Shown here piece after piece: positions 18,940 to 64,000 of a DNA stretch of 64,000 nucleotides. A model generated the notes under the pieces. It saw only the letters and a program-made list of their open reading frames with translations, was not told where the DNA came from and did no database searches. This stretch comes from Acidimicrobium ferrooxidans (GTDB lineage: Bacteria; Actinomycetota; Geothermincolia; Fen-727; Anoxymicrobiaceae). Within the stretch, counting starts at the first letter, position 1. Each line of letters opens with the position of its first letter. Where the stretch lies: the NCBI GenBank assembly GCA_020723485.1, contig DYIU01000001.1, positions 757,850 through 821,849 of the forward strand, given 5' to 3'. The position numbers and the translations under genes are program-made.

Positions 18940-19600
18940 CGGCTGGACAGACATATCGGTACCGATAATGCCGGGGATTCCCGTGTGGCCCGGTGACCCG
19001 GAGGTCGAGGTATCGAGGCGCCTTTCGATCGACGGGGGCGACGATTTCAACATATCCGTGGTCACGATGAGCTCGCACACGGGCACGCACATGGACTCCC
19101 CTCTCCACTTCATCGCCGGCGGCGCAGGGCTGGAGAGCATGCCGCTCGATGCCACGATGGGACCGGCGAGGGTCATCGAGATATCCAGCCGCGTCTGCAT
19201 CGACCCCGACGAGCTTGTTTCCCACAACATAGGCCCCGGACAGCGCCTGCTCTTCAAGACCGCGAACAGCCTCAGGCGCTGGTGGGAGGAGCCGTTCACG
19301 GAGGACTACGTGTTCCTGTCGCTCGCCGGGGCGCGGTTCCTGGCCGAGCGCGCCGTTGCGTGCGTCGGCAGCGACTACCTCTCGATAGCCGGCGTGGGCA
19401 CGGACGCGGCCGAGACCCACGTGACCCTGCTCGAGGCGGGCGTCTGGATAATCGAGGGACTCTTCCTGGGCGGAGTCGAGCCCGGGGATCACGAGCTGGC
19501 TTGCCTTCCCCTGCCCCTGCAGGACGCGGACGGGGCTCCCGTCCGCGCCGCGCTACGAATGGGGTCATACCACTTTCGTTCCACTGGCAACACTGGTTGA
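18932..19600 (+). CDS. Cyclase-family protein (kynurenine formamidase-like metal hydrolase)
   Basis: GTG start at 18932 overlapping the vapC stop; motif HTGTHMDSPLHF matches the HxGTHxDxPxH signature of the cyclase/arylformamidase family. Confidence 0.7.
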   Translation: MADGWTDISVPIMPGIPVWPGDPEVEVSRRLSIDGGDDFNISVVTMSSHTGTHMDSPLHFIAGGAGLESMPLDATMGPARVIEISSRVCIDPDELVSHNIGPGQRLLFKTANSLRRWWEEPFTEDYVFLSLAGARFLAERAVACVGSDYLSIAGVGTDAAETHVTLLEAGVWIIEGLFLGGVEPGDHELACLPLPLQDADGAPVRAALRMGSYHFRSTGNTG

Positions 19601-19679
19601 CTTTAAGAACAGACATAGCGTAACTCCGGTCAACCGTCTATATGGTGCCGACGGCATGACGAAAGTGGTCTGACCCCGG

Positions 19680-22600
19680 GTGTACAATGGCCCAGTGAGT
19701 TACTCGATCAACAGACTGGTTCAGAACCTCAGAGACCTGTGCGCCGACAGGGTCCTCAACGAGAAATGGCTCATCGCCCCTTCGCGCCGCGTCGGCATGC
19801 AGTGGCTCGACGCCGTCGCGCGCTCCGGGCAGCCGGTCCTGAACTTCCGGGTAAAGACTCTGCCAGCGCTGGCGCTGGAGCTTGCGTCGCAGGCGATGGT
19901 TGATCGCGGTCTCGAGCTGATAAGCGGCATTCGCCATCGCGTGCTCACGGCCCGTCTCTACGCAGGCCTGTCCGGCGGCAGCCGGGAATACCTCTCCGGT
20001 CTCGAGGCGAGCCGGGGCCTGGCCGACACCCTTGCCCGGGTGCTGGGAGAGCTCCGGCGGGCCGGCCTCGGCTCTTCCGATCTCGAGCCGCGGCGATTCG
20101 AGGTGCCTGCCAAAGGGAGGGCGGTCAAGGCATTACTGGCGGCTTACGAGCGCGAGCTCGAGTCAGCCGGACTCGTCGATTATCCCGGGTCGCTGAGGCT
20201 GGCCATCGCGAGGCTCGAGAGCGGAGCCGGGGTCACGGGCGGCCAGGCACTGATGATGATTCCGGATTTCTTAGAGGTCGAGCTCCGGGGCCTGGAGTCG
20301 CGCCTCTGGCAGGCGTTGCCCGAAGGCGAGAGGCTCGTTCTCGCTTCCGACGCCGCCGGGGACGTGGACCGCACAGGCACCAACGCTTCACTCCTCGCCT
20401 GCATAAGAAGCCCTGCCGACGCCCCCGAGCCGACCGGAATCGACGGCACCCTGCAGATATTCCGCGCGGTCGGCGAGGTCAACGAGGTGCGAGAGGTCCT
20501 GCGCCGCTGCGTGGAGCGCGGTATCCCTTTCGACGACGTCGAGATACTGCACACCGACAGCGCCACATACGTGCCGCTTATATTCGAGCTCTGTTGCCGG
20601 TTGAAGCCCGAAGACCCGGCATCGATTCCGGTCACGTTCTACGAGGGAGTCGCGTCAACATACTCCAGGCCGGCCCGCGCCCTTCTCGGCTGGCTCAACT
20701 GGATCTCGGAGGGCTACCCGCAGTCCGCGCTCGTGGACATGGTAACCGACGGGCTCCTTCGGTTCGGCATCGATGATTCGCTGTCAATGAGTTTCGCGCG
20801 CCTCGGCGCGATCCTGCGAGCGGTGCCGATCGGTGGCGGCCGTGACCGGTACCTGCCGGCCATCGACCGCGCGCTCGGGGCCCTCAACATGCAGATCGTG
20901 GACGAAGAGGAGCCGGTCGGGGCTGAAGACGAGACCTGTTCACCAGAGGAGAGATCGGCAAGGATTTCCAGCCTGCGCGAGAGGGCTGCCGGGCTCGAAG
21001 CGCTACGAGAGACGGCGGCCGGGCTCCTTTCGCTGTCCCCGGACAAGCGGGCGACCCAGGAGTCTATTCTCCTTGGCGCCCGTTCATTCATCGACCGTTT
21101 CGCACGCCGGGTCAACGAGTTCGACCAGTACTGTTACCGGCGCCTCTCCGACGAGATCGAGGCCGCCGCAGGCTGCTTCGAAGGAGGTGACGTGCAGGGT
21201 TTTGACCCGGCTGCATGGCTGGAGGCCCTTCCCGCGGACACCGCCGTCGAAGGCAAGGGGCCAAGGCCCGGCTGCCTGTATGTCTCGAACGTCCGCGGTG
21301 GTGGGCACTCCGGGCGCGGGCACACATTTATCATCGGGCTCGACGACACGCGCTTTCCCGGCACGGGCCGGCAGGACCCGCTGCTCCTCGACGCCGAGCG
21401 CTCACGCATCTCAGACGAGCTCCCCACAGGCGCCGGGCGTCTCTCCCGAGAGGTCGACGACCTTGCGCGGACGATGGCCGGGCTCCGGGGAAACGTCACC
21501 CTGGGCTACTCCTGCCGCAGCCTGGAGGACGACCGCGAGCTTTTCCCCAGCCCGGTGGTAGTCTCCGCCTTCCGTCTGATCGGCAGGCGAGACGGCGACC
21601 AGAAAGACCTGGCCCGCTGGGCGGGCCATCCCGCTTCTTTCGCTCCTTCAGATCCCGACCGCTGCATCGACTCGACCGAATGGTGGCTCTCGAGGACCTG
21701 CGGGGACGTGCTCGCCGAGGGCCTCGAGCTCGCGACGTCGGTGTCGTTCCCAAACCTGGGTCGCGGTTTCGTTGCCAGGGCGGCGCGCTCCGGCGACGAC
21801 TTCACAGAGTACGACGGGTATGTTCCCGAGGCGGGCGCCGAGTGTGATCCAGCCAGTCCCGGCGGCCCGACGCTTTCCGCCTCCAGGCTGGAGACGCTCG
21901 CGAAGTGCCCTCTGGAATACTTCTTCCGTTACGTGTTGAAGGTCGAGCCTCCGGAGGAGTTCGAGATCGATCCGGCGGTCTGGCTCGACCGGGCGCGCAG
22001 GGGCGAGCTGCTTCACTCAGCCTTTCGCGAGTTCATGACACACCTCACCGAGAAGGGGCTCAAGCCCGATTTCAACCGGGACCTTCCGCTCATCATGCGG
22101 GTGCTCGACGAGGAGGTGGCCCGCTGGGAGGCCAGGCTCCCAGCCCCCAGCACCGTGGTCTTCGAGAGCGAGAAGCGTGAGCTGTGCCGAATATCCCGCA
22201 TCTTTCTCCAGGAGGAACACGAGCACTGCATGGGGAACAGGCCGGTCTACTTCGAGGCGTCTATCGGCCTCGAGCCCGAAGGGGAGGGGTGCCCGCTCGA
22301 CTGCGAAAGCGGCGTCGAGATCGAGCTGCCGGGCGGACGGAGCATCAGGGTCCGCGGGCGCATCGATCGTATTGACGAGCTGCCCTCCGAGGGAGCGCCC
22401 CGGTTCGCTGTGTGGGATTACAAGACCGGGAGCATGTACGGCTATTCACGGGAAGACCCGTTCAGGCAGGGCCGGCACCTGCAGAACGCCTTGTACCTCG
22501 AGCTGGCGGCGGCGCGCCTTGCCGAGCTCCACCCGGGTGCCCGCGTGGTAAGCTTCGGCTACTTCTTCCCGGGCACACGCGCCCACGGGGCGCGGATCGT

Positions 22601-22856: not shown

Positions 22857-25800
22857 CGACAGGTCCGAATCCCCCGCCCGACCAGCACGAGAGGGACCGC
22901 ATCCAGAACGGGCTCCACGCCTGCATGCTGGTGGAAGCAGCTGCGGGAACGGGAAAGACCACCAGCATGGTCGGGCGCATGGTCGAGCTTCTGAAGAGCG
23001 GCACCTGTGCCGACATAAGGACTCTGGCCGCGGTCACTTTCACCCGCAAGGCCGCCGCCGAACTGCGGGCCCGCTTCCAGGTCACGCTCGAGAAGGCGGC
23101 CCACGAGTCTTCCGGAGAAGAGCGCGCCAGGCTCGAGAGGGCCCTGGCCAACGTCGAGCAGTGTTTCGTCGGAACGATTCACTCCTTCTGCGCGCGGCTG
23201 CTTCGCGAGCGCCCGGTGGAGGCCGGTGTCGACGTCGAGTTCGAGGAGATAGACGAGGACGCCGACGCGCTGCTCCGCACAGAGGCGTGGAGCGAGCACT
23301 GCGCGCGGCTGATCGCCGATGACGGCGAAGGGATCGTGTCAGAGCTGAGCCGTCTCGGCATACAGCTGTCCGACCTCGAGCAGGCGTTCAAGACGTTCGT
23401 GCTCTACCCCGACGTCGTGCGCTGGCCGATGCCGGCGGAGAGCCGGGACCTCGAAGGTCTCGAGGAGGCCGCGGCGGCTCTCGACGATTACATCGAGCAC
23501 ATGCGAGCTCTGGCCCCTGGTCTTCCTGAAGACTGCGGTCGGGACACCCTGATCCCCGCTTTTCGCAGCCTGCCGCGCGTGGTCTCCCACTACGAGGACC
23601 TGGGTGATCCCGCGCAGCTGATGGAGGTTCTCGAGCAGCACTTCAACAGGGGCGTCAGGGTGATACAGAAGGTCTGGGCACAGGCCGGCTACGCTCCCGA
23701 AGACGCCAAGGCCGAGGGCACGCGGTGGGCCGATTTCCAGGCGCAGGTCGTGAGCCCGCTCGTCCGCGCGTGGCGCGAGGCCCGGTACAGGCCGGTGATG
23801 AGGGTGCTGTTCCAGGCGCGTGAGCTGTACGACCTCAAGCGCTCAGAGCGCGGCCAGCTCAACTTCCAGGACCTGCTCATGAAGGCGGCGGGCCTCCTCC
23901 GGGGCAATCCGCACGTCAGGCGGTACTTCAGCCAGCGCTTCACCCACCTGCTGGTGGACGAGTTCCAGGACACAGACCCGATCCAGGCCGAGGTCATGGT
24001 CCTGCTCGCTTCCGCGAGCTTCGACGAGACTGACTGGAGAAAATGCCGGCCGAGGCCGGGCTCGCTGTTCGTAGTGGGTGATCCCAAGCAGTCGATCTAC
24101 CGCTTCCGCAGGGCTGACATTGTCACCTACAACGAGGTGAAAAACCTCATCCTCTCACCGGGCTCGGAGGGCGAGCCCGGCGAGCTGGTGCGGCTCTCCG
24201 CCAACTTCCGGACGGTCAGCCCCCTCGTCGAATGGGTGAACTCCACTTTTCAGCCCGTGGACGACACGGATGCCGCCGACGGGGGCGTAATGACCCGCTT
24301 CTGCTTGGAAGAGTCCGCCGAGTCGCCGTCATACGTTCCCCTCGGGGTCGGCCGCCGGGAAGGCAGCGCCGGCGAACTGGTGGGGGTCTGCACGCTTCTC
24401 ATAGATGAAGAGGCGGGCAACCGCGACGAGGCAACCGCATTCGAGGCCGACTTTATAGCCCGGTTCATACGCGCCGCCATTGACGACGGTGTCGCGGTGC
24501 CGCGGACCGTCGAACAGCTGGAGGCGGGGCAGGAGGCAGCTGCCGGCCCCTCCGATTTCATGATAGTCACCCGGTACCGCTCCGGCCTGAGCGTCTACGC
24601 CGCGGCCCTTCAACGGTACCGCATCCCACACCAGGTCACCGGCGGCACGGCGCTGAACGAGGTCTCCGAGCTCAAGCTCCTGCAGGCGTGCCTGCGCGCG
24701 GTCGCCCGTCCGGACGACCCCGTTGCGCTCCTGTCTGCGCTGCGGGGCGAGGCGTTCGGAGTGAGCGATGCCTCGCTATACAGGTTCAAGGCGGCGGGCG
24801 GCAGGTTCAACTACAACTCTCCCTTGCCCGAAGAGCTCCCGCCAGGCGATCTCGAAGCGTTCACCGACAGCTTCGCGAGACTCCAGAAATACCACCGTTG
24901 GCTCTCGAGCCTCCCGGCGGTCTCGGCCATCGAGAACGTAGTCTCTGACCTCGGGCTCGCGGTACTGGCGAGCGCGCGCGAGGGCGGTGACGTCGAGGCG
25001 GGCAGCCTGGGGAAGGCCGTCGAGCTGGTCAGGTCCGTTGCCCGGAGCGAGTGGTCGACCGTCAAGCTCGTTCAGTTCCTCGGCCAGATAGTGGACATGG
25101 AGCAGAAGTACGACGGCGTCTCCGCGAGCTCGCGGGAGGTCCCGGCCGTCAGGCTCATGAACCTGCACAAGGTGAAAGGCCTGGAAGCCCCGGTCGTCTT
25201 CCTTGCCAATGCGTTCGGGGAAGGGGCGCACGACGTAGGTCTGTTCGTGGACCGTTCGGGCGAGGAGGTCCACGGGTACATGGCGGTCCGCGGGGCGAGA
25301 AGAGGACGGGCCGCAGGGCCGCTCCTGGCTCACCCGGAAGGTTGGGACGAGCTGGCCGCGAAGGAGTCGGCTTTCACGACCGCCGAGGAGCTGAGGCTCA
25401 GGTACGTGGCCGCGACCAGGTCGGGCTCGATGCTCGTCGTCACCGAGAGGCCGAAGTCCAACAGGTGGAACGCCTGGCGGCATTTCCTGCCGGTGCTGCC
25501 TGGCGACCGTTTCCTCGAGGACGCCGGCGAGCGAGCCGCGCCGGCACGGCGGAGAACCGCCCTCTCCGCCGCTGACGCTTCCGCCGCGGTCGAGGCCCTG
25601 GCTTCGCGACTCGCCACGGCGGAAGCACCGACTCACGCGGTGAGCCCGGCAAAGGAGCTGGCCCTCTCGACCCCCGGGAAGACGGCGGCACCGCCGTCCC
25701 CGGACACCGGGGACGTGCCGCCGTTCGCGGACGGCGAGCACGGTGTCGAGTGGGGACAGGCGGTCCACCAGCTCCTCGAGCTGGCCATGCGCGAGCCCGG

Positions 25801-26212
25801 GGCTGATCTTAATGCCGCGGCGCGTGCCCTGCTCGAAGAGAACGGCATTGACCCGTCACATGTCCCGGTCGCGGTCGAGACCGCATTATCAGTGGTAGCG
25901 TCGGACACCTGGAAAAGAGCAGAGAACTCGACCCGAAGACTCTCCGAGGTCCCGTTCGAGATGGTGCTGGAGGACAGGGAACCGCCTACTCTGGTAAGGG
26001 GGGCGATAGACCTCGTCTTCGCCGAGAACGGGGGGTGGGTGCTGGTCGATTTCAAGACGGACCTGGTGTCGGATGCCGGCACTGCCGCGCTCGCGGAGAG
26101 GTACAGGCCCCAGCTCGCGCTGTACAGGCAGGCATGGGAGCGGTGCACCGGCGAGGAGGTCAACGAGTGCGGTATCTTTCTGACCCGTACTGGCCGGTAC
26201 GTCACGACTTGA
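22853..26212 (+). CDS. UvrD/AddA-like helicase-nuclease
   Basis: ATG at 22853 (MTTGPNPP) inside the longer ORF from 22412; Walker A AAAGTGKTT; UvrD motif Ia-like AAVTFTRKAAAELR; C-terminal PD-(D/E)XK nuclease (GAIDLVFAENGGWVLVDFKTD...QLALYRQAW). Confidence 0.8.
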   Translation: MTTGPNPPPDQHERDRIQNGLHACMLVEAAAGTGKTTSMVGRMVELLKSGTCADIRTLAAVTFTRKAAAELRARFQVTLEKAAHESSGEERARLERALANVEQCFVGTIHSFCARLLRERPVEAGVDVEFEEIDEDADALLRTEAWSEHCARLIADDGEGIVSELSRLGIQLSDLEQAFKTFVLYPDVVRWPMPAESRDLEGLEEAAAALDDYIEHMRALAPGLPEDCGRDTLIPAFRSLPRVVSHYEDLGDPAQLMEVLEQHFNRGVRVIQKVWAQAGYAPEDAKAEGTRWADFQAQVVSPLVRAWREARYRPVMRVLFQARELYDLKRSERGQLNFQDLLMKAAGLLRGNPHVRRYFSQRFTHLLVDEFQDTDPIQAEVMVLLASASFDETDWRKCRPRPGSLFVVGDPKQSIYRFRRADIVTYNEVKNLILSPGSEGEPGELVRLSANFRTVSPLVEWVNSTFQPVDDTDAADGGVMTRFCLEESAESPSYVPLGVGRREGSAGELVGVCTLLIDEEAGNRDEATAFEADFIARFIRAAIDDGVAVPRTVEQLEAGQEAAAGPSDFMIVTRYRSGLSVYAAALQRYRIPHQVTGGTALNEVSELKLLQACLRAVARPDDPVALLSALRGEAFGVSDASLYRFKAAGGRFNYNSPLPEELPPGDLEAFTDSFARLQKYHRWLSSLPAVSAIENVVSDLGLAVLASAREGGDVEAGSLGKAVELVRSVARSEWSTVKLVQFLGQIVDMEQKYDGVSASSREVPAVRLMNLHKVKGLEAPVVFLANAFGEGAHDVGLFVDRSGEEVHGYMAVRGARRGRAAGPLLAHPEGWDELAAKESAFTTAEELRLRYVAATRSGSMLVVTERPKSNRWNAWRHFLPVLPGDRFLEDAGERAAPARRRTALSAADASAAVEALASRLATAEAPTHAVSPAKELALSTPGKTAAPPSPDTGDVPPFADGEHGVEWGQAVHQLLELAMREPGADLNAAARALLEENGIDPSHVPVAVETALSVVASDTWKRAENSTRRLSEVPFEMVLEDREPPTLVRGAIDLVFAENGGWVLVDFKTDLVSDAGTAALAERYRPQLALYRQAWERCTGEEVNECGIFLTRTGRYVTT

Positions 26213-33339: not shown

Positions 33340-35196
33340 ATGTACGGCAATACCGGAAAGGTGCTCGACGTCGATCTGACGTCCGGGGAGATCAACGTTA
33401 TCGAGCTCGACGAGGATACTTACCGCCAGTACGTGGGGGGCACGGGCCTCGCCGCCAGGCTGCTTTACGACCACGGCGACCTCGAGGCGGGCCCTCTCGA
33501 CCCCGGGAACCTCTTCATCGTGGCCATCGGACCGATGCAGGACACCGGGATGTACGGCACCAGCCGGTTCTCGGTTGGCGCCCGCTCTCCTCTGACCGGT
33601 GTCTGGGGCCAGGCCAGCTGCGGCGGCGACTTCGGCCCGGAACTCAGGCGCTGCGGCTACGACGCGGTTATCTTCAGGGGCAAAGCCTCCGAGCCGGTCT
33701 ACCTTCTCATCGAAGAATCAGAGGCTTCACTCCAACCCGCCGGCGACCTCTGGGGCAAGGACACCTACGTGGTCGACGACGAGCTCAAGGCAAAGCACAG
33801 CAAGCAGCACAGGATAATGGTCATCGGCCCCGCCGGCGAGAACGGCGTGCTCTTCGGCAGCATCGCCAACAGCAAGGGCCACCATGCCGGCCGCTCGGGA
33901 ATGGGCACGGTCATGGGCTCGAAGAACCTCAAGGCGGTCTGCGCGAAGGGCAGCATGAAGCAGGAGTACGCCGACCCCGAGGGCCTCAAGTCTTTCTGGC
34001 AGGACACGGTCCGGCCGCAGATGGACGAGAGCATCTACTGCCAGACTGTCGGAGCTTTCGGAACGGCTGCCAACATGGAGATGAAGATGATCGAGGGCGA
34101 CGTGCCCACCAAGAACTTCCTGGTCGGCTCCTGGGAAGAGGGCCCCGAGACCCTGAGCGGCATCGCGATGGCGGACACTATCCTGACAGGCCGGGAGACC
34201 TGCCGCGGCTGCGGAATCCGCTGCAAGCGGGTGGTGAAGATAGAGGAAGGCCCGTACGCGATAGGCGAAGGCCCGGGGCCGGAGTACGAGACCATCGGCA
34301 CGTTCGGCACGATGCTCATGAACCCCAACCTCGAGGCCGTGGCGAAGGCCAACGACCTGTGCAACCGCCTGGGGATGGACACCATGACCTGCGGGTCGAC
34401 GATCGCCTGGGCCATGGACTGCTTCGACCGAGGCATGTTGAAGCCGGAGGACTGGGACGGCATAAAGCTGGAGTGGGGCGAGATAGATCCTGTCATCGAC
34501 CTCGTCCAGAAGATCGCCGTGCGCGAGGGCAAGCTCGGCGAGCTGCTCTCCAGGGGCTCCGCGAAAGCCGCCGCGGAGGTCGGCAACGGGAGCGAGGAGC
34601 TGCTGACGACCAGCAAAGGCCTCGAGTCTCCCATGCACGACCCGCGCTGCAACTGGGGCGACGGCCTGGCTTACGCTACCTCAGTCCGAGGCGCGTGCCA
34701 CGTCTCCAACCTCATGTTCCTGCTCGAGTGGGGGGCCCTGGACTTCCCGGAGATAGGGGTAGACCACATACTCGACCCGATGGGAACCGAGTACAAGGCG
34801 GACGGGGCCGCGAAGATGCACGATATCGGGTGCATCACGAACTCTGCGTGCTGGTGCCAGTTCCCCTCGCAGGCTCTCAGTCTCCCCCAGTGGGTCGAGG
34901 CGTTCAACCTGGTCACCGGCTGGGGTTGGGACATCGACGAGTTCATGAAGACCGGCGGCCGCATATGGTTCCTGCAGCGCTGCCTCGGTCACATCTGGGG
35001 CGCGACCGCTGAAGACGACGTCATGGGCGCCAGGAGCATGTACCCGACCGAGGACGGCATGATCGCGGGCTCGGTGCCCGACATGGACACCATGCTCAAG
35101 GAGTTCTACGAGCTGCGGGGCCTGGACTCCGACGGCAAGCCGACGGAAGAGACCCTGAAGGACTACGGCCTCGACTTCCTCATCGGCAAGATCTGA
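33340..35196 (+). CDS. aor: Aldehyde:ferredoxin oxidoreductase (tungsten-pterin AOR family)
   Basis: 618 aa; AOR N-terminal domain (MYGNTGKVLDVDLTSGEINVIELDEDTYRQYVGGTGLAARLLY) and conserved Cys-containing Fe-S/pterin region (CRGCGIRCKR). Confidence 0.85.
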   Translation: MYGNTGKVLDVDLTSGEINVIELDEDTYRQYVGGTGLAARLLYDHGDLEAGPLDPGNLFIVAIGPMQDTGMYGTSRFSVGARSPLTGVWGQASCGGDFGPELRRCGYDAVIFRGKASEPVYLLIEESEASLQPAGDLWGKDTYVVDDELKAKHSKQHRIMVIGPAGENGVLFGSIANSKGHHAGRSGMGTVMGSKNLKAVCAKGSMKQEYADPEGLKSFWQDTVRPQMDESIYCQTVGAFGTAANMEMKMIEGDVPTKNFLVGSWEEGPETLSGIAMADTILTGRETCRGCGIRCKRVVKIEEGPYAIGEGPGPEYETIGTFGTMLMNPNLEAVAKANDLCNRLGMDTMTCGSTIAWAMDCFDRGMLKPEDWDGIKLEWGEIDPVIDLVQKIAVREGKLGELLSRGSAKAAAEVGNGSEELLTTSKGLESPMHDPRCNWGDGLAYATSVRGACHVSNLMFLLEWGALDFPEIGVDHILDPMGTEYKADGAAKMHDIGCITNSACWCQFPSQALSLPQWVEAFNLVTGWGWDIDEFMKTGGRIWFLQRCLGHIWGATAEDDVMGARSMYPTEDGMIAGSVPDMDTMLKEFYELRGLDSDGKPTEETLKDYGLDFLIGKI

Positions 35197-35206
35197 GTAA
35201 TAACCT

Positions 35207-35286
35207 GGGGTCACGTCATATTTTATTACCGGCGGTCACGCGTGCCTCGATAATCGGCACCAGGTAATAAAATTAGACGTGACCCC
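35207..35286. repeat. 80-bp palindromic element (24-bp arms GGGGTCACGTCATATTTTATTACC, 32-nt loop) between convergent genes
   Basis: Left arm 35207-35230 and right arm 35263-35286 are reverse complements with one or two mismatches; shares the GGGGTCA-GTCA 5-prime core with the element family found further downstream. Confidence 0.7.
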
Positions 35287-35289
35287 ATC

Positions 35290-36282
35290 TTATGACACGC
35301 TGTAGTAAGCGGTCTCACCGCGGAGCTCGCTTCCCACCCTGCGTTCGCTCTCGAGTATGACCAGGTGGCCGAAGACCTCCCGCATGCCCAGGAAGATGTT
35401 CTCCACGGTGTTCTCGGCCTCGATGTCCGCAAGCATGTCGAAGGTGAGCTCGATGACCGTCTTCTCCCCGTCCCCGAGCGCGCCCTCGATGAAACGCAGT
35501 CGCTCATCGTGGTGTGCGAGCACCTCCTCGACCCGCCTGCTGAAGTCCTCGATGCAGTCACCGTGACCCGGGAGCGCCAGGCGGACGTCCAGGCCCCTCA
35601 GCTTCTCGAGGGACCTGATGTAGTCGGGAAGGCCGCTCCGCTGTTCGCTCTGCCATGGGGGGTACATGTCGGGGTTCGGCGTGATGGTGTTGAGCAGCAT
35701 GTCGCCGGTGAAAAGGAGCTTCTGCGCCCTAAGGTAGAGGCAGATGTGGTCTATCGAGTGGCCGGGCGTGTGGATTACCTCGAGGTCGAACGGTTCGCCC
35801 TCCAGTATGTCTCCTTCCTCTACAGGCCTGTCGACGGCCACCCCTTCCGCTACCACGTCCCACTGGGAACTGGTCAGCGCCGTTGTTTTCACCAGCTCGC
35901 GGTCCAGCCCCATCAGCGGCGACATCCCTATCAGGTACTCGCGCAGGCGGACGGCCTCCTCCCTGTAGCTTCCGACCGGCCCGAGCCCGAGACGGTGACA
36001 GACCACCTCCGCGCCGCCCTCGGCCTTGAACCGTGCGGCTAGGCCCATGTGGTCGGGGTGGTGATGCGTGACGATTATCCTCTGGATGGAGGCCGGCGGG
36101 TGACCAAGCTCCGATAGCGTGCGCGGGATGGTCTCGGTGACTTCTTCCATGATGGGGCCGGTGTCGATGAGCGTCACCGGCTCGCCCTCGATGAGGTACA
36201 GGTTGACGGGCTGGACCGTGTAAGGTATCTCGAAGTGGAGCTTCCGGATGCCACCAGTGATATCGACTATCTCACGCTTCAA
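35290..36282 (-). CDS. MBL-fold metallo-hydrolase
   Basis: TTG start at 36282 with GGAGG upstream; metallo-beta-lactamase motif IIVTHHHPDHMG. Confidence 0.8.
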   Translation of the reverse strand: MKREIVDITGGIRKLHFEIPYTVQPVNLYLIEGEPVTLIDTGPIMEEVTETIPRTLSELGHPPASIQRIIVTHHHPDHMGLAARFKAEGGAEVVCHRLGLGPVGSYREEAVRLREYLIGMSPLMGLDRELVKTTALTSSQWDVVAEGVAVDRPVEEGDILEGEPFDLEVIHTPGHSIDHICLYLRAQKLLFTGDMLLNTITPNPDMYPPWQSEQRSGLPDYIRSLEKLRGLDVRLALPGHGDCIEDFSRRVEEVLAHHDERLRFIEGALGDGEKTVIELTFDMLADIEAENTVENIFLGMREVFGHLVILESERRVGSELRGETAYYSVS

Positions 36283-40101: not shown

Positions 40102-40161
40102 GCAGGGCAGTTAAATCGGGGTCAGGCCTGGATTCAAGGCCCCTCGAGTCAGGAGTCCGGA

Positions 40162-43845: not shown

Positions 43846-44976
43846 ATGGGGTCCCGGATAGACGAGGAGCTCCGCATGCTCGAGGAGATGGCGCTCGACT
43901 TCGCGGAGCGTGAGCTGAAGGACAGGCGCGAGGAGTGCGACCACTACCCCTACGCGCCGCTCGAGGAGAACGTGCTCGAGAAGGCCTGCGACGTGGGGTT
44001 TTTCTGCATGACCGTACCCGAGGAGCTCGAGGGCGGGGCCATGGGCGTCGAGGCGCTGTCGCTCGTGCTGAAGGACATATCGCGAACCGACGCGAGCCTC
44101 GCGGGAGTGATCTTCACTACCGCGCTCGCCCAGGAGCTCGTGCTGGCCGCCGGGGCCGGGTCGGTGCTTGCGGGCGCGCCGGGCAACGGCAGCTGGCGCG
44201 AATCTCTCATCGCGTTCCCCTCCTTCGACGACGCCGCCGAGAACCTCGGACTGAGTGCCGAACGGGCCGGCGGGGCGGGTTACACCCTGACGGGGAAGGT
44301 GGAATACGTTGTCCTGGGCGGTCTCGCCTCCAGGGCCCTGCTGCCGGCGGCGGTTCCCGGCGTGGACGGCTACTCCTTCTTCCTGCTCGACCTCGACGCC
44401 GAGGGTGTCAGGAAGAGCGAGCCTGTGCTGAGCCTCGGCCTGCACTCGTGCCCGGCCGTGGACCTGGAGCTCGACGGCGCGAGGGCCGCGCTCGTCGGAG
44501 AGGAGGGGCTGGGCGCCAGCTATTTCACCGACTGCGCCGACAGGCTGAGCATACCCGCCGCGGCCATCTCAACCGGCATCATGAAGGGGTGCCTCGACGA
44601 GGCGCTGGAGTACTCGCGGCAGAGGTTCCAGGGGGGCAGGGAGATAGTCAACTGGTCGGAGCTCAGGCGCATTCTCGCGGACATGGCGACCGTCCAGGCG
44701 ACGGCCGACGCGCTGGTCGCATGCGCCTGCGTGCGGGCCGAGGCAGACGAGCCCGGGTGGCGCCTGCTGGCCAGGGCGACGGCCCTCCAGGTGCAGGCCG
44801 CCGCCTGCGACGTCACGACCGACGGCATACAGGTCCTCGGCGGGAACGGCTACATGGAGGACTACGGGCAGGAGAAGCGGTTCCGCGACGCCAAGCAGGT
44901 CCAGGCGCTGCTCGGCCTGGTGCCGATGAGAAAGCTCGAGTACATAACCCGTGTCATCGAAGGCGAACCCACTTGA
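43846..44976 (+). CDS. Acyl-CoA dehydrogenase-like protein (second paralogue)
   Basis: Follows the first ACAD by 12 bp; N-terminal ACAD-like helical domain; C-terminal region ends with a GGNGY-type motif (LGGNGYMEDYGQEKRFRDAK). Confidence 0.7.
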   Translation: MGSRIDEELRMLEEMALDFAERELKDRREECDHYPYAPLEENVLEKACDVGFFCMTVPEELEGGAMGVEALSLVLKDISRTDASLAGVIFTTALAQELVLAAGAGSVLAGAPGNGSWRESLIAFPSFDDAAENLGLSAERAGGAGYTLTGKVEYVVLGGLASRALLPAAVPGVDGYSFFLLDLDAEGVRKSEPVLSLGLHSCPAVDLELDGARAALVGEEGLGASYFTDCADRLSIPAAAISTGIMKGCLDEALEYSRQRFQGGREIVNWSELRRILADMATVQATADALVACACVRAEADEPGWRLLARATALQVQAAACDVTTDGIQVLGGNGYMEDYGQEKRFRDAKQVQALLGLVPMRKLEYITRVIEGEPT

Positions 44977-44986
44977 ACGCAAAATC

Positions 44987-45008
44987 GGGGTCAGGTCACT
45001 TTGTTGCG
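44987..45008. repeat. Solo 22-bp arm of the GGGGTCAGGTCA element family
   Basis: GGGGTCAGGTCACTTTGTTGCG, 11 bp after the ACAD stop; no partner arm within 100 bp. Confidence 0.7.
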
Positions 45009-45047
45009 TTTCCTGGACAGGATCGAAAGGACGGGCGGGAGGACACA

Positions 45048-45837: not shown

Positions 45838-46167
45838 ATGGGCGAATTCACCCTCTTCGAGATGCTGCGGATACCCACGTACGACAACGAGGACTACGCG
45901 ACCACCGGGCGGGTCACGATCGACCTCGAGAAGTGCAACGGCTGCGGGTTGTGCGCTAAGGTGTGCCCGGGCAAGGCGCTCTATGTCGCAGGCGAGGGGA
46001 AGGACCGGAAGGCGCACATGCACGCTGATTTCCCGCAGTGCATGTCCTGCAACGACTGCGCCGCGATATGCGAGCGCGACGCCATATTCGTGAGCGTCCC
46101 CTACTTCTTCCCGTTCTTCTTCAAGACGCAGGGCAAGGGCGAGTTCTCGCCCCCCCGCAAGTTCTAA
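45838..46167 (+). CDS. 4Fe-4S dicluster ferredoxin-domain protein
   Basis: Two cysteine clusters: CNGCGLCAKVCP and CMSCNDCAAICE. Confidence 0.7.
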   Translation: MGEFTLFEMLRIPTYDNEDYATTGRVTIDLEKCNGCGLCAKVCPGKALYVAGEGKDRKAHMHADFPQCMSCNDCAAICERDAIFVSVPYFFPFFFKTQGKGEFSPPRKF

Positions 46168-46176
46168 CGAAACACA

Positions 46177-46249
46177 GGGTCAGGTCACTTGTTGCATTTC
46201 TTACTCTGAACTTGGCGGAGGATACAAGTGCAACAAGTGACCTGACCCC
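46177..46249. repeat. Full palindromic element of the GGGGTCAGGTCA family (20/21-bp arms, 32-nt loop)
   Basis: Arms GGGTCAGGTCACTTGTTGCA (46177-46196) and TGCAACAAGTGACCTGACCCC (46229-46249) are reverse complements; lies in the 85-bp gap between the ferredoxin and SDR genes. Confidence 0.8.
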
Positions 46250-46267
46250 GATGTGCAGGGAGGTGCA

Positions 46268-51429: not shown

Positions 51430-51645
51430 CGCTTCTCCTCGTGGTTGGCAGGGGTTTCGCGCATTTGCCCTCCTGTGACTCGCCGCCGCCGTAAGAGTGC
51501 ACCTTCCCGTTTCAGGTTATGTAGTGAGTCAATAATGCGTACTAGCAATATAGGTTGGACAGTGGGTTAATTTCAATAGCCGCAGCGGGAATTGTTGATA
51601 AAATACCCTGAATAGGGGATTATCTGACGTTCACTTAATGCAGTA

Positions 51646-51693
51646 TTGACAAAAAACCATCTGAAATATATTATTAATTATCCAATTAATTAA
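51646..51693 (+). promoter_or_regulatory. Canonical sigma70-type promoter with ATTAATTA operator-like motifs upstream of the second TetR gene
   Basis: TTGACA (51646-51651), 17-nt spacer, TATTAT (51669-51674); two ATTAATTA motifs (around 51673-51680 and 51685-51692) overlap the -10 and predicted start; embedded in a ~160-bp AT-rich divergent region. Confidence 0.55.
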
Positions 51694-55590: not shown

Positions 55591-55998
55591 ATGAAGACGC
55601 GTGAGGAGCGTGCCATGCCGGATGACAAAGCCTTGCTCGAGACCCTGGTAGCGCGCGAGAAGGTTCGCCGCGAGGCCTGGCTCAACCATGACGCGGAGGC
55701 GCTCCGCGGCCTGCTGACGGACGACTACGTCGAGGTCAACCTGCTGGGTCGCCTGTCGCGCGAACAGGTGCTCGAGGAGATATTCCCCTACCTCGAGATG
55801 AAAGAGTACGAGATGAGCGACTTCCGCCTGGCCCGCGCGGGAACCGGGGCGGCTGCCATCACCTACCACTGCCGGGAGAGGGTGAGCTTCAAGGGCGAGC
55901 CCGACATCACCGGCGACTTCCACGTCTCCGCCGTATACACGCAGGAAGACAGCGAGTGGCGCCTGCTGCTCTGGTCGATCACCCCCTACGAGAAGTAA
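55591..55998 (+). CDS. NTF2-like/SnoaL-like fold protein (DUF4440-like)
   Basis: 135 aa; composition and motif spacing (W..HD.EAL..LL.DDY...N..G......V.........) typical of small NTF2-like proteins; not verified. Confidence 0.55.
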   Translation: MKTREERAMPDDKALLETLVAREKVRREAWLNHDAEALRGLLTDDYVEVNLLGRLSREQVLEEIFPYLEMKEYEMSDFRLARAGTGAAAITYHCRERVSFKGEPDITGDFHVSAVYTQEDSEWRLLLWSITPYEK

Positions 55999-56163
55999 GA
56001 GCAAGGGGTCAGACCACTAACGTCACGTCCCCAGCAGCAGTACTAGCCGCTGACGCCCGTTTTCGGAGTAATGCCGTTGAATTCGCCGGTGCGCAATATG
56101 ACGAAACCGGCCTGACCCCATCTGGTATACTGACGCGAGTGTCACCAAACACGGGAGGGCCCA

Positions 56164-59570: not shown

Positions 59571-59584
59571 CGTGATGCAACACT

Positions 59585-59606
59585 GGGGTCAGGTCATTTT
59601 GTTGCG
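59585..59606. repeat. Solo 22-bp arm of the GGGGTCAGGTCA element family
   Basis: GGGGTCAGGTCATTTTGTTGCG, 15 bp after the stop of the second TPP-enzyme gene. Confidence 0.7.
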
Positions 59607-59686
59607 TTTTCAACTGGCAGGGGGGTGGAAGCGGGCCTTCGTAGGGCGTAATCTGTATCCCACAGCAGCAGATCGAGGAGGTCTTC

Positions 59687-60238
59687 ATGGGGGACGAGAT
59701 GAACGGGACTGCCGGCGAAGCCGGAGCGTCCGGGTGGAGTGACCCCAAGGTCGCTGGCTATCTGATGACGCTGACATATGCGTGCGGCGCCGCCGGAGTG
59801 GCACTCGGTGTCTACGGGTATGGGACGGACGGAGCCGTGAAAGGGCTGCACTACGCCTGCATCCTGATGGTCGGCGTCGTCGGGATCATCTCCGGGATAC
59901 GGCACACCGTCTTCTATCGAAGCGACCTTGCGCGGATGGGCATAAGCGAGGGGAAACCGTTCTTCCAGTGGGAGACCGGCTTCGCCAACCTTGCGCTGGG
60001 CGTCATCGCGGTCATCGCCTTCTTCGCCGGCTGGGGCGGCGGCGCCGAGGTGGCCCTCATACTGGCATATGCGCTCTACCTCGCCCTCGCCCTCTCGCTC
60101 GTGATCTACAGGCGCGTCAGCTCGAAGAGCCTGGACGCGGGCGTGATATTCGCTATGGTCATGTGGGCGGTAACGGTGGGCTTCATGCTCTTCTTCGGTA
60201 TCGCGGCGGCCGTTTCTTCCGAGCTGTCGCTGTTCTGA
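59687..60238 (+). CDS. Hypothetical membrane protein (183 aa)
   Basis: GAGGAGG RBS; four to five predicted TM helices; no family recognised. Confidence 0.6.
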   Translation: MGDEMNGTAGEAGASGWSDPKVAGYLMTLTYACGAAGVALGVYGYGTDGAVKGLHYACILMVGVVGIISGIRHTVFYRSDLARMGISEGKPFFQWETGFANLALGVIAVIAFFAGWGGGAEVALILAYALYLALALSLVIYRRVSSKSLDAGVIFAMVMWAVTVGFMLFFGIAAAVSSELSLF

Positions 60239-60247
60239 CGCAAACAA

Positions 60248-60326
60248 GGGGTCAGGTCACTTTGTTGCATTTTCACGTGTTCGATCCAGTGAAGTGCAGT
60301 AAAACGCAACAAAGTGACCTGACCCC
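60248..60326. repeat. Full palindromic element of the GGGGTCAGGTCA family (22-bp arms, 35-nt loop) between convergent genes
   Basis: Arms GGGGTCAGGTCACTTTGTTGCA (60248-60269) and CGCAACAAAGTGACCTGACCCC (60305-60326); starts 10 bp after the membrane-protein stop and ends 10 bp before the stop of the minus-strand aldo/keto reductase gene. Confidence 0.8.
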
Positions 60327-60335
60327 GATGTTGCG

Positions 60336-61337
60336 CTACTTGCCGATGGGGAGGTAGTGGCGGAACCTGCGCGAGAGCTGGTCGATGCGGTCCATCTCCC
60401 TGTCCGAGAGCTTGAGCTGCATCGAGGCCACGTTCTGCTCGGCCTGGCTGACCTTGGTCGCGCCCGGGATGGCGACGACGGTATCCCCGTAGTAGTTGGT
60501 GAGCCAGCTCAGGGCGACCACAGCCGCGCTCACCCCGTTCGCGTCCGCGATCTCCTCGAGGCCCTCTACGAGCTTCCGGCTGCGCTCCAGCTGGATGCGC
60601 ATCACCTGCCGGCGCCCGAACGGCCTCGTCTTAAGCAGGGACGGGTCCTTGTGGAACTTGCCCGTCAGTATGCCCATCTCAAGGGGCGACCAGGCGATGA
60701 GGGTGATTCCCAGCTCCTTCGCGGCCTTGAGCGTCCCCAGCGTCTCGATGCGCCGGTTGAGGAGGCTTATCTTCACCTGGTTTGACGCGAGCGGAACCCC
60801 GCGCATGGCGAGCGCCGCGTGCGCTTTTCTCATCATGAACCAGGGGAAGTTGCTGACCCCGGGGGCGCGTATCTTGCCCGTTTCCACCAGGTCCGCCATC
60901 GCGTCCATCTGGGCCCGGACAGAGGAGAGCGCGATGGGCTGGTGTATCTGGAACAGGCCGACCGGGTAAGGGGCAAGGCACTCTATGCGCGTGTCGATAT
61001 TCACCCGCAGCGAGTCGGCCGTCCTCATGAACGGGAACCACTTGGTGGCGACCAAGACGTCCGTTTCTGCATATTCCGCGGCCTCCAGCGCGCAGGCGAG
61101 CCTGCGCTCGGAGCGCCCCATGCCGTATGCCTCGGCGGTATCGAACCAGTTCACGCCCCCCGCCTTCGCCGTCTTGACGATTTGGATGGTCTCGTCGTCG
61201 CAGACCTCCTGCCAGACGAGGCCGTCGAAACCCTGCCCCCCGGCGAACTGCCAGGTCCCGAGGCCGATGGGGGATATCTCGATCCCGGTGCGGCCGAGCT
61301 GCCGCCTCGGGGCTCCGTCAGTAGCTACAGCGCTCAT
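60336..61337 (-). CDS. Aldo/keto reductase
   Basis: ATG at 61337; AKR N-terminus (LGRTGIEISPIGLGTWQFAGG...VNWFDTAEAYG) and C-terminal region (QLSRRFRHYLP). Confidence 0.85.
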   Translation of the reverse strand: MSAVATDGAPRRQLGRTGIEISPIGLGTWQFAGGQGFDGLVWQEVCDDETIQIVKTAKAGGVNWFDTAEAYGMGRSERRLACALEAAEYAETDVLVATKWFPFMRTADSLRVNIDTRIECLAPYPVGLFQIHQPIALSSVRAQMDAMADLVETGKIRAPGVSNFPWFMMRKAHAALAMRGVPLASNQVKISLLNRRIETLGTLKAAKELGITLIAWSPLEMGILTGKFHKDPSLLKTRPFGRRQVMRIQLERSRKLVEGLEEIADANGVSAAVVALSWLTNYYGDTVVAIPGATKVSQAEQNVASMQLKLSDREMDRIDQLSRRFRHYLPIGK

Positions 61338-61413: not shown

Positions 61414-61866
61414 TCACCTGATAATGGCGATCACTATGAACCCGATGAGCGGGTTCAACGCTATGCTCGCGGCGCCGAGAGCGATGCCCCAACCCGCCAG
61501 CCTGCTCTCCCCTTCGACGTTGACGAAAGAGCCGATGCGTTCCCTTCGCGGCTCCGGCAGCCCGTTGATGAACCGCCTGGTCCGCACGCCTGTCTGCATC
61601 GCCATGACCGCCAGGAATAGTGCGGCTATCCCCCCGATGGGCAGGAACATGAACCTGCCGCTGTGCAGGGGGTCCGAGGGATTCAGGAGCAGGGGCACCA
61701 TGAATCCCACGAGGTACCCGCCCACCGCGACCGCGAGTGCCGCCAGGCCCCGGTTGAAGCTCGCCCTGCCCGGCCTCCGCGGACCAGGCCTCTCGGAAGT
61801 GCCGCCCTTCTCGTTCAAATCCGCTCCAGGATACTCTCGTGCCACCGATACGTCTCCAGGGGCCAA
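61414..61866 (-). CDS. Hypothetical membrane protein
   Basis: Three predicted TM helices; true start uncertain; no family recognised. Confidence 0.4.
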   Translation of the reverse strand: MAPGDVSVAREYPGADLNEKGGTSERPGPRRPGRASFNRGLAALAVAVGGYLVGFMVPLLLNPSDPLHSGRFMFLPIGGIAALFLAVMAMQTGVRTRRFINGLPEPRRERIGSFVNVEGESRLAGWGIALGAASIALNPLIGFIVIAIIR

Positions 61867-61961
61867 TATCGTAGCACTGTTGATGTCCCCCTGCGCAGAA
61901 AAGGCGAAGGCCGCGCCCCGGCGCTCGTGGCGCGGCCTTCACTGACGCGTTGTCGGAACGC

Positions 61962-63359
61962 CTAGTCGTCCCAGGCGCCGATGGTCTCCTCCCCCGAGGT
62001 GCGGGCGGAAAGAGACCCCGCCTCGGTCCATATGTAAGTGGCGCGCTCGCAGATTATGTTCTGTCCGGGGGTGAGGCTCCTCACCCTGATCGCATACCTG
62101 CCCGGCGTGGTCATGGTGTCCGCCAGGTTGTAGGTGGCTCGCGTGTTGGCAAGGACAGTCCTGTTGATGGTCGCGTCCGGAAGCACGCCCTCACCGTAGT
62201 ACTTCATCTCGATGTTGACGTCCACCGGATTTGGATTCTGCACGCAGGTCCAGGTCTCGTACAGCAGTCCGCAGTTGCCTCCGGGGAGGTACCAGTAGGC
62301 GTGAGACCCGTCAACCCCTATGGAGTCGTGGCCCACCTCGCGCCAGATGCTTCCGGAGCCCCAGTACATCGGTCGCTCGGCGAGGAGCGGGAGGGTGCCC
62401 GACACCTTGATGGACAGGTCGGTGTTGGGCGCCTGCTCGTTGACCTTGATGGTCTCGCGTGTCTGGGGGGCCATCGGGAATGGAGCCATTACGATCTGGC
62501 CGCTCGGCTTCATGTAGGTGATGGTCACCTGGTTCACAGCCGCGTTGGGATTCTGGATGCACAGGAATGTCGTGAACCCCCAGGCCGTCGTTCCCTCGGC
62601 GAGGAAGAAGTCGTTGGCCGGGGTAGTGGCGCCGACCGACTCGTGACCCATCCTGCGGGAGTCCCTGTACATGGACCTTTCGCAGATTATCGGCTGGTTT
62701 CCCAGCACCTGGATGGAGGCGTCCGCCGAGCCTATGTCGTTCGTCATGTTGTAGGACGCGCGAGAATTAGAGGGGACCGTCTTGTTGACGGCGAACGGCC
62801 CGAAACCCTCGATCATGTAAGTGATGATGATGTCTGTAGCTGCCACGTTCGGGTTCTGCACCGTTAGCCAGGTCTCGAAGCCCCATGCGCTGGAGCCCTC
62901 CGGGAGATACCAGATGTTGTTCGGGGCGGTGACGCCTACAGATGAGTGGGTCTCCAGGTTCTGCTCCACTTCGGAGCCCGGCCCACCCATCCAGAACATA
63001 GTCCGATCGACGGCAATAGTCCTGGTCGGGTCGAGGCACTCCACCAGGGTGCTGAAATCCCGCTGGCCAACTGCAGTCAGGGGATTTACGGTCACTCGGC
63101 TCTCGGAAGGCATCGTGAACGGGGGCTGGACGAGCGGGCCCAGGTCCGCGGTCATGTAGGTTATGCGGATCTGGACGTCAACGGTGTTCGGGTTCTCTAT
63201 GTTGATGTAGGTGCCGAAGCCCCAGGCGGTAGTGCCTTCTGCGAGGTACCAGGTCGGGAGCGGGCCCGCCACGGCCGCCCCTCCGCCGAGGAGCATTAGC
63301 GATGCCGCGCCGGCGCACATCATAAGGGCTACCAGAATCGAGATCATCTTCCGTGCCAT
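61962..63359 (-). CDS. Secreted repeat protein (~465 aa) made of signal peptide plus 4 type-B repeat modules
   Basis: ATG at 63359 (MARKMISILVALMMCAGAASLMLLGGGAAVAG); the upstream part of the ORF (to 63470) is translated palindromic element; four ~110-aa modules beginning WYL[AP]EG[TS].AWGF.T[YW][IL]...NPN. Confidence 0.75.
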   Translation of the reverse strand: MARKMISILVALMMCAGAASLMLLGGGAAVAGPLPTWYLAEGTTAWGFGTYINIENPNTVDVQIRITYMTADLGPLVQPPFTMPSESRVTVNPLTAVGQRDFSTLVECLDPTRTIAVDRTMFWMGGPGSEVEQNLETHSSVGVTAPNNIWYLPEGSSAWGFETWLTVQNPNVAATDIIITYMIEGFGPFAVNKTVPSNSRASYNMTNDIGSADASIQVLGNQPIICERSMYRDSRRMGHESVGATTPANDFFLAEGTTAWGFTTFLCIQNPNAAVNQVTITYMKPSGQIVMAPFPMAPQTRETIKVNEQAPNTDLSIKVSGTLPLLAERPMYWGSGSIWREVGHDSIGVDGSHAYWYLPGGNCGLLYETWTCVQNPNPVDVNIEMKYYGEGVLPDATINRTVLANTRATYNLADTMTTPGRYAIRVRSLTPGQNIICERATYIWTEAGSLSARTSGEETIGAWDD

Positions 63360-63440
63360 CACACCCACCTCCGTAAGGTTGCCTGCTTCAAGAGTACTCC
63401 TGCGGGCAATGACGGTCGAGAGCGCAGTTCCCTTACATGC

Positions 63441-63529
63441 GCACAATGGGGTCAGGTCATTTTGTTGCATTCAAGGAGTCTGGGATGAGTATGGTCAAAA
63501 TGCAACAAAATGACCTGACCCCATTGTGC
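63441..63529. repeat. Full palindromic element of the GGGGTCAGGTCA family with extended arms (~28 bp, 31-nt loop)
   Basis: Core arms GGGGTCAGGTCATTTTGTTGCA (63448-63469) and TGCAACAAAATGACCTGACCCC (63501-63522); the palindrome extends outward to GCACAATGGGG...CCCCATTGTGC; lies between two minus-strand genes. Confidence 0.8.
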
Positions 63530-63533
63530 ACCG

Positions 63534-63995
63534 CTACTCTTCGTCCCACCAGAACGGCGGCTTGGAGCAGTCGAAATAGGGCTCGCCGCTGCGCTTGATG
63601 ATGTAGACCGGCATACCTACGAAGCACTGCTCGAACAGCGCCTCGACGTCAGCCATGCGCATGCGGATGCAGCCGTGGGAGACGGAGTAACCGATGGAGC
63701 CCGTGTCGCTGGTCCCGTGGATGAGCACGCCGCCCCCGTTGATGTGCATCGCCCTCGTGCCGAGAGGGTTGTTGGGGCCGGGAGGTATCATGTCCGGCAT
63801 GTTCTCCATCCAGGTCGACCCGCGGTTGTACCAGGTGGGGTTCTTCTCCATCCTGACTATCTTCCACTGGCCGATGACCGTGGGGTACTTGGCCGAGCCG
63901 ACTGCGACCGGGTACTTTGCCAGGAGCTTGTCGCGGTCGTAGAGCGAGATGGTATGCGCCTCCTGGTTCACCAGAAGCAGCTTGCCGACGGTCAC
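63534..63995 (-). CDS. L,D-transpeptidase (YkuD domain), probably truncated at the window edge
   Basis: Catalytic motif HGTSDTGSIGYSVSHGCIRM; no signal peptide within the window, so the N-terminus likely lies beyond position 64000. Confidence 0.7.
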   Translation of the reverse strand: MTVGKLLLVNQEAHTISLYDRDKLLAKYPVAVGSAKYPTVIGQWKIVRMEKNPTWYNRGSTWMENMPDMIPPGPNNPLGTRAMHINGGGVLIHGTSDTGSIGYSVSHGCIRMRMADVEALFEQCFVGMPVYIIKRSGEPYFDCSKPPFWWDEE

Positions 63996-64000
63996 CTCTT

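Follow-up and report, generated by a model that had tools for sequence, protein, structure and literature searches.

[quoted passage not shown] In SBW25, the arms of the REPINs are conserved, while their spacers are not shared between copies (PMC3337134). The canonical REP has a conserved GT[AG]G 0-2 nt 5′ of the foot of its hairpin (PMC6006769). According to a passage of PMC12306157 that cites Liang et al. (2015), REPs located within 15 nt of a stop codon stall ribosomes in E. coli. The element described here is a long palindrome at 63.4 kb of a 64-kb stretch of DNA, which is referred to as the window throughout. The best explanation for it, and one that we regard as likely, is that it is an inverted doublet of a lineage-specific interspersed repeat family of Candidatus Geothermincolia (Actinomycetota), REPIN-like in its build.

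Structure of the palindrome

An initial annotation of this DNA had reported an inverted repeat here, and it was recovered in the present analysis with its arms at 63441-63471 and 63499-63529. The extension of the arms had been correctly recognised, but their length, given as about 28 bp, measures 31 nt. The two arms form a perfect inverted repeat with 27 nt between them, and the whole palindrome (63441-63529) spans 89 bases. Its parts, and the two repeat units to which they belong, are as follows.

63441..63471, unstranded: left arm of the perfect palindrome (GCACAATGGGGTCAGGTCATTTTGTTGCATT), 31 nt, 100% complementary to 63499-63529
63472..63498, unstranded: spacer or loop of 27 nt, unrelated in sequence to the spacers of the other doublets
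63499..63529, unstranded: right arm of the palindrome (inverted-repeat search)
63435..63475, plus strand: repeat unit 1 of the 63.4-kb doublet (covariance model of the 41-nt unit, 33.8 bits, E = 5e-9)
63495..63535, minus strand: repeat unit 2, inverted, of the 63.4-kb doublet (covariance model, 36.9 bits, E = 4e-10)

The claim that this is the longest perfect stem in the 64-kb window was borne out, the next-best inverted repeats being 35 nt at 86% and 34 nt at only 85% pairing. When folded as minus-strand RNA, the palindrome reached -62.5 kcal/mol compared with -27.4 ± 3.4 kcal/mol for shuffled sequences (z = -10.3), and none of the 200 shuffles was as good. The 22-nt core had six matches in the window at three mismatches or fewer, where none was expected. 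The palindrome at 63.4 kb is real and not a chance occurrence.

The YkuD-DUF5719 locus

Both genes that flank the palindrome lie on the minus strand and are co-directional. The features of the locus are listed below.

63534..64000, minus strand: 3′ part of a YkuD L,D-transpeptidase gene that continues past the window end (PF03734, E = 3.9e-26)
61962..63359, minus strand: gene for a secreted four-module DUF5719-family protein of 465 aa (ORF list, Pfam, signal peptide)
63362..63372, minus strand: ribosome-binding site GGAGGTGGGTG, upstream of the ATG at 63359 (sequence inspection, orthologue alignment)
63391..63422, minus strand: conserved block CTCTCGACCGTC...TACTCT, a candidate promoter (invariance in five orthologous loci)

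The palindrome had been described as lying about 80 bp upstream of the gene for a secreted four-module protein, and both parts of this description are accurate: 81 nt separate 63441 from the ATG at 63359, and the protein carries a signal peptide and four WYLxEG..WGF..NPN modules. The further statement that the element sits in the 5′ region of that gene rather than at a 3′ end was mistaken, since the YkuD stop codon (TAG at 63534-63536, minus strand) is just 4 nt from the palindrome. The C-terminus of YkuD (...PPFWWDEE*) is kept in the orthologues.

The spacer between the two genes was compared across five orthologous loci, namely the window, L027, L032, L033 and L028. In all of them an invariant block, CTCTCGACCGTC...AGTAC(G/T)CT, stands approximately 37 nt upstream of the ATG, in a spacer that otherwise varies freely. 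Across the orthologues the promoter-like part of this block takes the form TCGACC-N17-TAC(T/G)CT, and in the window it would place a -35 element (TCGACC) at 63414-63419 and a -10 element (TACTCT) at 63391-63396, with a 17-nt spacer. A scan with the generic sigma-70 consensus did not call the block. From its conservation, we infer that the block at 63391-63419 is the putative promoter of the DUF5719 gene itself. If this is right, then the palindrome is located upstream of the promoter and outside the 5′ UTR. Being 4 nt past the YkuD stop and upstream of the promoter-like block, it takes the same post-stop position as all eight family sites of the window (see below).

The public gene call for the DUF5719 protein (P0001; L026 1-1509) has 502 aa and starts at an ATG at 63470, inside the palindrome (MQQNDLTPLCA...). 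Its orthologues have 464-465 aa. These lengths, together with the signal peptide and the ribosome-binding site, which reads GGAGGTGGG in front of the ATG at 63359, favour the 465-aa start at 63359, and the 502-aa model is probably an artefact of the repeat with a wrong start.

At the other end of the DUF5719 gene, the window (61896-61940, minus strand) has a canonical-looking terminator, GAAGGCCGCGCC...GGCGCGGCCTTC followed by a T-run, which is conserved in L027 (~3440-3495). At the same position past the DUF5719 stop, L028 (11393-11433) carries a singlet of the repeat family with a degenerate tandem copy. The presence of a unit in L028 where the window and L027 have a hairpin plus T-run terminator fits a role at 3′ ends. 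Local gene content also differs around the repeats: DUF169 and TetR genes lie between the DUF5719 and aldo/keto reductase genes in L027 (3565-5361) and L028 (11550-12994), and the window (61414-61866) has only a membrane-like ORF of 134-150 aa in their place. No tRNA or tmRNA was found near the 63.4-kb palindrome.

A repeat family dispersed through the window

An unfiltered search of the 64-kb window with the covariance model of the 41-nt unit returned 14 units at eight intergenic sites and nothing else. The sites comprise six doublets and two singlets.

19548..19690, unstranded: doublet of the GGGGTCAKACCA subtype, between cyclase and AddB-like genes (covariance model)
35194..35299, unstranded: doublet of the stem GTAATAA/TTATTAC subtype, between convergent AFOR and metallo-beta-lactamase genes (covariance model)
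44974..45014, plus strand: singlet directly past the stop of an acyl-CoA dehydrogenase gene (core match, covariance model)
46163..46262, unstranded: doublet between ferredoxin and SDR genes, with a 1-nt deletion common to both arms (inverted-repeat search, covariance model)
55992..56132, unstranded: doublet of the GGGGTCAGACCA subtype, with a longer spacer (covariance model)
59572..59612, plus strand: singlet 4 nt past the stop of a TPP-enzyme gene (core match, covariance model)
60235..60339, unstranded: doublet filling the whole gap between convergent DUF6790 and aldo/keto reductase genes (inverted-repeat search, covariance model)
63435..63535, unstranded: doublet, the 63.4-kb copy (covariance model)

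These sites are spaced 3-15 kb apart among housekeeping genes of both orientations. The repeat unit is approximately 35-41 nt long and, in an alignment of 46 units, has the consensus nnAAyGCAACAyy-GGGGTCAGGTCAC-TTTGTTGCrTTT. Each unit is a small palindrome, with an AAAyGCAACA / TGTTGCrTTT stem of 6-10 bp and a loop of ~17 nt in which the conserved 13-nt core GGGGTCAGGTCAC lies. Nearly all copies, in the window as well as in other genomes, have the outer segment GCAACAyy. Several subtypes keep the GGGGTCA.. of the core and differ in their self-complementary flanks (GCAACA/TGTTGC, CACTAAT/ATTAGTG, GTAATAA/TTATTAC and ACGAA/TTCGT). Across the 46 units, the stem was paired in 70.7% of cells, compared with 61.1% after shuffling (a value as high as the observed one was reached in 0 of 500 shuffles) and 35-49% when the partners were slid against each other. 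On its own, a unit folds weakly (-4 to -13 kcal/mol; z mostly around -1).

Units occur alone, as direct tandems (periods 37-40 nt; L014, L006, L028) and as inverted doublets. Composite arrays were also seen at L018 1117-1199 and L021 1476-1541, where a CACTRAT/ATYAGTG unit abuts a GCAACA unit and the two share the GTG of the stem. All 13 of the doublets examined are inward-facing, 87-104 nt in length and built from two units of one subtype. Their spacers, mostly 24-32 nt, have no sequence in common between copies, while their arms match at 25-35 of 36 positions. For the long stem that a doublet can form, 30 consensus pairs were predicted, and compensatory double changes were seen at 19. A variable dinucleotide precedes GGGG: six doublets have UA and six have CG, and the two arms match in every case.

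The 63.4-kb copy follows this pattern, as both of its arms share GCACAA for GCAACA and TCATTTT for TCACTTT. The latter departure is also present in the 59.6-kb singlet (59572-59612), which has the T variant (GGTCATTTT) common to both arms of the 63.4-kb copy. The extended arms, which would have weakened the case for a shared element if unique to this locus, belong to the family, their GCACAAT being a variant of the GCAACAyy segment. The matched dinucleotides and shared departures indicate that the arms of a doublet evolve in concert, and either selection for pairing or the copying of one arm from the other could bring this about. We also considered the idea that arms inserted on either side of pre-existing host DNA, which would make the spacer host sequence; the spacers resemble the empty sites too weakly to decide this. 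The 63.4-kb copy is a perfect inverted doublet and is probably young.

At the 19.5-kb doublet, the Pfam Cyclase ORF (18932-19600) runs ~40 nt into the left arm (19548-19588), and the element supplies its final 14 codons (RMGSYHFRSTGNTG*), apparently as a result of an insertion that took the place of the native C-terminus or stop codon of the cyclase. Immediately after this doublet (19680-26212) come a PD-(D/E)XK nuclease ORF (AddB-like, 1058 aa) and then a UvrD/AddA-like ORF, whose start is probably miscalled given that the listed ORFs overlap by ~445 nt (22412-22856). Hairpins that open with GGGGTCAGG were noted at 40108-40140 of the window and at L027 678-709 (GGGGTCAGGCCTGGATTCAAGGCCCC and GGGGTCAGGTCTTGTTCCAAAACCTGGCCCC), a few nucleotides past stop codons. 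These mini-hairpins could have arisen from family units by collapse, or they could be terminators of independent origin with the same stem. A further stretch at 51547-51674, between divergent genes at ~51.4 and ~51.7 kb, is AT-richer and has several strong sigma-70-like sites on both strands (e.g., TTGACA-17-TATTAT at 51646-51674).

Presence and absence between relatives

The evidence for movement comes from comparison between lineages. Four orthologous loci lack the 63.4-kb element in their YkuD-DUF5719 spacer, namely L027 (80% protein identity), L032 (76%), L033 (72%) and L028 (66%). At these empty sites, the alignment with the window holds on both flanks, at the YkuD stop and at the TGTAAGG...promoter-like block. 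The 63.4-kb copy was inserted in the lineage of the window, between the YkuD stop and the conserved block upstream of the DUF5719 gene. The 60.3-kb doublet is absent in L028 as well, which has an unrelated 35-nt spacer there instead, and L028 in turn has family units at other sites, namely the singlet directly past the DUF5719 stop and a tandem pair after a Fer4/CCG gene. Sites that are occupied in one relative and empty in the other, in both directions, are the mark of an element that moves or otherwise propagates.

It is very likely that the locus reflects a dispersed repeat family and a lineage-specific insertion. The initial annotation had also concluded that the element was of mobile or recombination-related origin. 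That conclusion was right, although its reasoning from a 5′ context was not; the origin is borne out instead by the four empty orthologous sites, the differing sites of a relative and the unrelated neighbours of the copies in several genomes.

Beyond the window, the exact 21-mer was found in a Candidatus Geothermincolia MAG (four contigs) and in 20 contigs from metagenomes. A match in Solibacter (L005) was rejected as a family copy, being a chance match within coding sequence with no unit flanks. Plasmids and phages, searched with the element by blastn, and viral contigs, searched by pattern scan, gave no relevant match. The Logan contig L026 (3162 bp), which carries the locus, has its two ends exactly within the 63.4-kb and 60.3-kb copies. 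Many of the matches fall at the ends of contigs; short-read contigs that end in or beside units include L026 (at both ends), L003, L004, L008, L012, L014, L020, L021 and L025. Such contig ends fit the behaviour of high-copy repeats in assemblies, and the repeat family fragments metagenome assemblies of the Geothermincolia lineage.

Location at the 3′ ends of genes

All eight window sites, and most of the others, start at -7 to +17 nt relative to a stop codon, the commonest distance being 1 nt or less, and several copies have the stop codon as the AA/TAA foot of their unit. Between co-directional genes that leave enough space, the element is found beside the upstream stop and away from the downstream start. 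At sites with singlets or tandem units, 12 of the 14 that could be scored are in sense orientation past the upstream stop and two are antisense; the fifteenth, a singlet between divergent genes (L016 674-714), is the only purely 5′ context seen. On the strength of the 63.4-kb copy, the element type had been said to occur in both 5′ and 3′ contexts; this premise was wrong, as the 63.4-kb copy is located past a stop codon like every other window site. No common function links the flanking genes (cyclase, AddB-like nuclease, AFOR, metallo-beta-lactamase, acyl-CoA dehydrogenase, ferredoxin, SDR and TPP enzymes), making a regulon operator unlikely. A promoter within the unit, serving genes downstream of singlets, was also considered and rejected, as inspection found no -10-like hexamer at the right spacing.

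The 63.4-kb copy is thus a mobile hairpin of REPIN-like build that sits where a terminator would, and it is not an element that controls the downstream gene. Since the hairpin is not the leader of the secreted repeat-protein gene, an apparent regulatory oddity is removed. A mobile origin had been proposed in place of a dedicated terminator, and here the first half stands while the exclusion of a terminator-like role does not, given that both can hold. A terminator scan of 63200-63700 called no site and there is no U-tract past the hairpin, where the minus-strand sequence beyond the palindrome stem reads GCAUGUAAGG. Terminator-like sites across 44-64 kb numbered 12, which is not above the 9.4 ± 3.4 found in shuffled sequence.

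If the YkuD transcript has the inserted element at its 3′ end, the hairpin of -62 kcal/mol would be expected to impede read-through into the DUF5719 gene, and it could also block 3′-5′ exonucleases and thereby protect the upstream RNA. With just 4 nt between the stop codon and its base, the hairpin may also get in the way of ribosomes during termination, an effect described for E. coli REPs. The chances that the 3′ hairpin affects termination, insulation or RNA stability appear to us about even.

Proposed mobilisation and alternative explanations

In the mechanism that we propose, two units of the same subtype face each other across an unconserved spacer of ~27 nt and would form a long hairpin. 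The element would then spread non-autonomously via a folded, single-stranded hairpin intermediate on which a host-encoded enzyme acts. The best precedent for such an enzyme is a Y1/HUH transposase of the RAYT type (PMC3337134, PMC6006769), and by this analogy RAYT-type mobilisation is conceivable but doubtful. With canonical REPs, the genome has a single-copy RAYT gene that the repeats flank. A tblastn search with E. coli RayT across the 185 kb of DNA analysed gave no match, and Pfam scans of the ORFs beside repeats, in the window and on the metagenome contigs, turned up ordinary metabolic genes and neither a transposase nor an integrase. Furthermore, spacers that are unrelated between copies with near-identical arms are hard to explain by transposition of whole doublets.

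A more speculative version, which we think unlikely, is a REPIN-like system of an undescribed kind. Here the module would be recognised via the 13-nt loop GGGGTCAGGTCAC, with the stem free to co-vary; insertion or retention at stops would be in one orientation; and doublets would pair locally around a ~27-nt spacer of arbitrary sequence. If true, such a system would imply a new mobilising enzyme, other than a GTAG-guided RAYT, or a host protein that uses the modules as portable 3′-end signals.

The core GGGGTCAGGTCAC might instead be the site that a host protein recognises (such as a nucleoid protein, an uptake-signal receptor or an RNA-binding protein), with the family kept by selection and the hairpin pairs secondary. 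Uptake sequences that are paired in terminators offer a parallel for such secondary pairs. The core is indeed the most invariant part of the unit and is common to subtypes with differing flanking stems; the orientation bias of the singlets and tandem units, with 12 of 14 in sense past the stop, and the GGGGTCAGG mini-hairpins that also lie past stop codons are both in keeping with this idea. However, exact 13-nt cores are confined to the 35-41-nt units, with none within genes in the 64 kb, and conservation reaches well beyond the core. Moreover, assemblies break at the units, as they do with long high-copy repeats. We know of no candidate binding protein for the core, and a host-protein site is rather improbable as the basis of the family.

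The element could also be a MITE, in the sense of a deletion derivative of a DDE-type insertion sequence that was moved in trans, its arms representing terminal inverted repeats. At 23-35 nt the arms are comparable to such terminal repeats, the element measures ~90-100 bp, and copies are dispersed, intergenic and present or absent between relatives. The motif beginning with GGGG recalls the inverted repeats of the Tn3 family. Against this, no target-site duplication was found at the borders of any doublet examined, the interiors are unrelated between copies, and units also occur alone or in direct tandem (periods 37-40 nt). In addition, each arm is itself a small palindrome with a stem that co-varies between subtypes, and no transposase gene borders any of the matches examined. 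We consider a MITE origin improbable.

A hairpin that evolved in place as a locus-specific cis-regulatory element, whether a terminator of YkuD or an attenuator, thermosensor or riboswitch in the DUF5719 5′ UTR, would account for the great stability of the structure and for its location between two co-directional cell-envelope genes, 81 nt upstream of an ATG. Its absence from four orthologous loci that keep both genes largely refutes this, and 13 more units of the same sequence stand beside unrelated genes, the conserved promoter-like block is downstream of the palindrome, and there is neither an Rfam family match nor a U-tract, which together leave this reading highly improbable. Lastly, a site-specific recombination site of the integron attC or Xer type can practically be dismissed: the element would fit as an imperfect palindrome of 57-141 bp with a variable centre at gene 3′ ends, and the outer boxes AYGCAAC / GTTGCRT match the consensus RYYYAAC / GTTRRRY at 6/7 positions, but the neighbours here are large housekeeping genes of both orientations that are syntenic with relatives lacking the element, so that it was inserted and is not a cassette, the window holds no array of co-oriented cassettes and no integrase, and singlets and tandem units do not fit.

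Comparison with known systems

At gathering thresholds, Rfam gave no matches in the window, and permissive searching returned only generic miRNA-precursor hairpins at 17-36 bits, compared with thresholds of 43-142. The element resembles Rho-independent terminators, including the hairpins without a U-tract that have been proposed for Actinobacteria, in forming a stable hairpin a few nucleotides past a stop codon between co-directional or convergent genes. It differs from an intrinsic terminator in its 27-nt loop, in having no U-tract, in a sequence common to many loci and in being an insertion that is absent from orthologues. MITEs such as the Correia elements of Neisseria are similar as non-autonomous intergenic repeats of ~100 bp with inverted-repeat ends that can act on neighbouring transcripts, whereas the present family is without target-site duplication or conserved interior and has units that are also single and in tandem.

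The closest likeness is to the REP, REPIN and BIME sequences of Proteobacteria, which RAYT (TnpA-REP) Y1 transposases mobilise and which are short extragenic palindromes present in many copies as singlets, tandem clusters and inverted doublets of ~90-100 bp. The GI REPIN of SBW25 is 89 bp long, as is the 63.4-kb copy. As in REPINs, doublets are formed only within a subtype, the arms are far better conserved than the unshared spacers, the elements are found near stop codons, and sites are present or absent between relatives. Unlike the canonical REP, the family has no conserved GT[AG]G at the foot of the hairpin, where the 46 units read nnAAy 5′ of the stem; GTAG is seen only at the 60.3-kb and 63.4-kb copies, as the stop context of the host gene, and is present at the empty orthologous sites as well. 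In the canonical REP, a long, G+C-rich basal stem of 7-20 fully paired nt closes a loop of 2-5 nt, the other form being a long hairpin with a bulge, whereas the unit here has a short, A/T-rich stem of 6-10 bp and a large conserved loop of ~17 nt. The doublets differ from REPINs in that their spacer is mostly unpaired and in their host, which belongs to an uncultured actinobacterial class. Since two defining features of the canonical, RAYT-associated REP are missing, we class the family with the interspersed extragenic palindromes and not as a member of REP/REPIN.

Repeats of the REP/REPIN type have been characterised mainly in Proteobacteria, and a family in Geothermincolia with the same doublet logic and another unit design would extend their range. 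Such a family would also be a test case for the origin of doublets with unique spacers, and for the co-option of mobile hairpins as 3′-end signals in bacteria with few canonical terminators.
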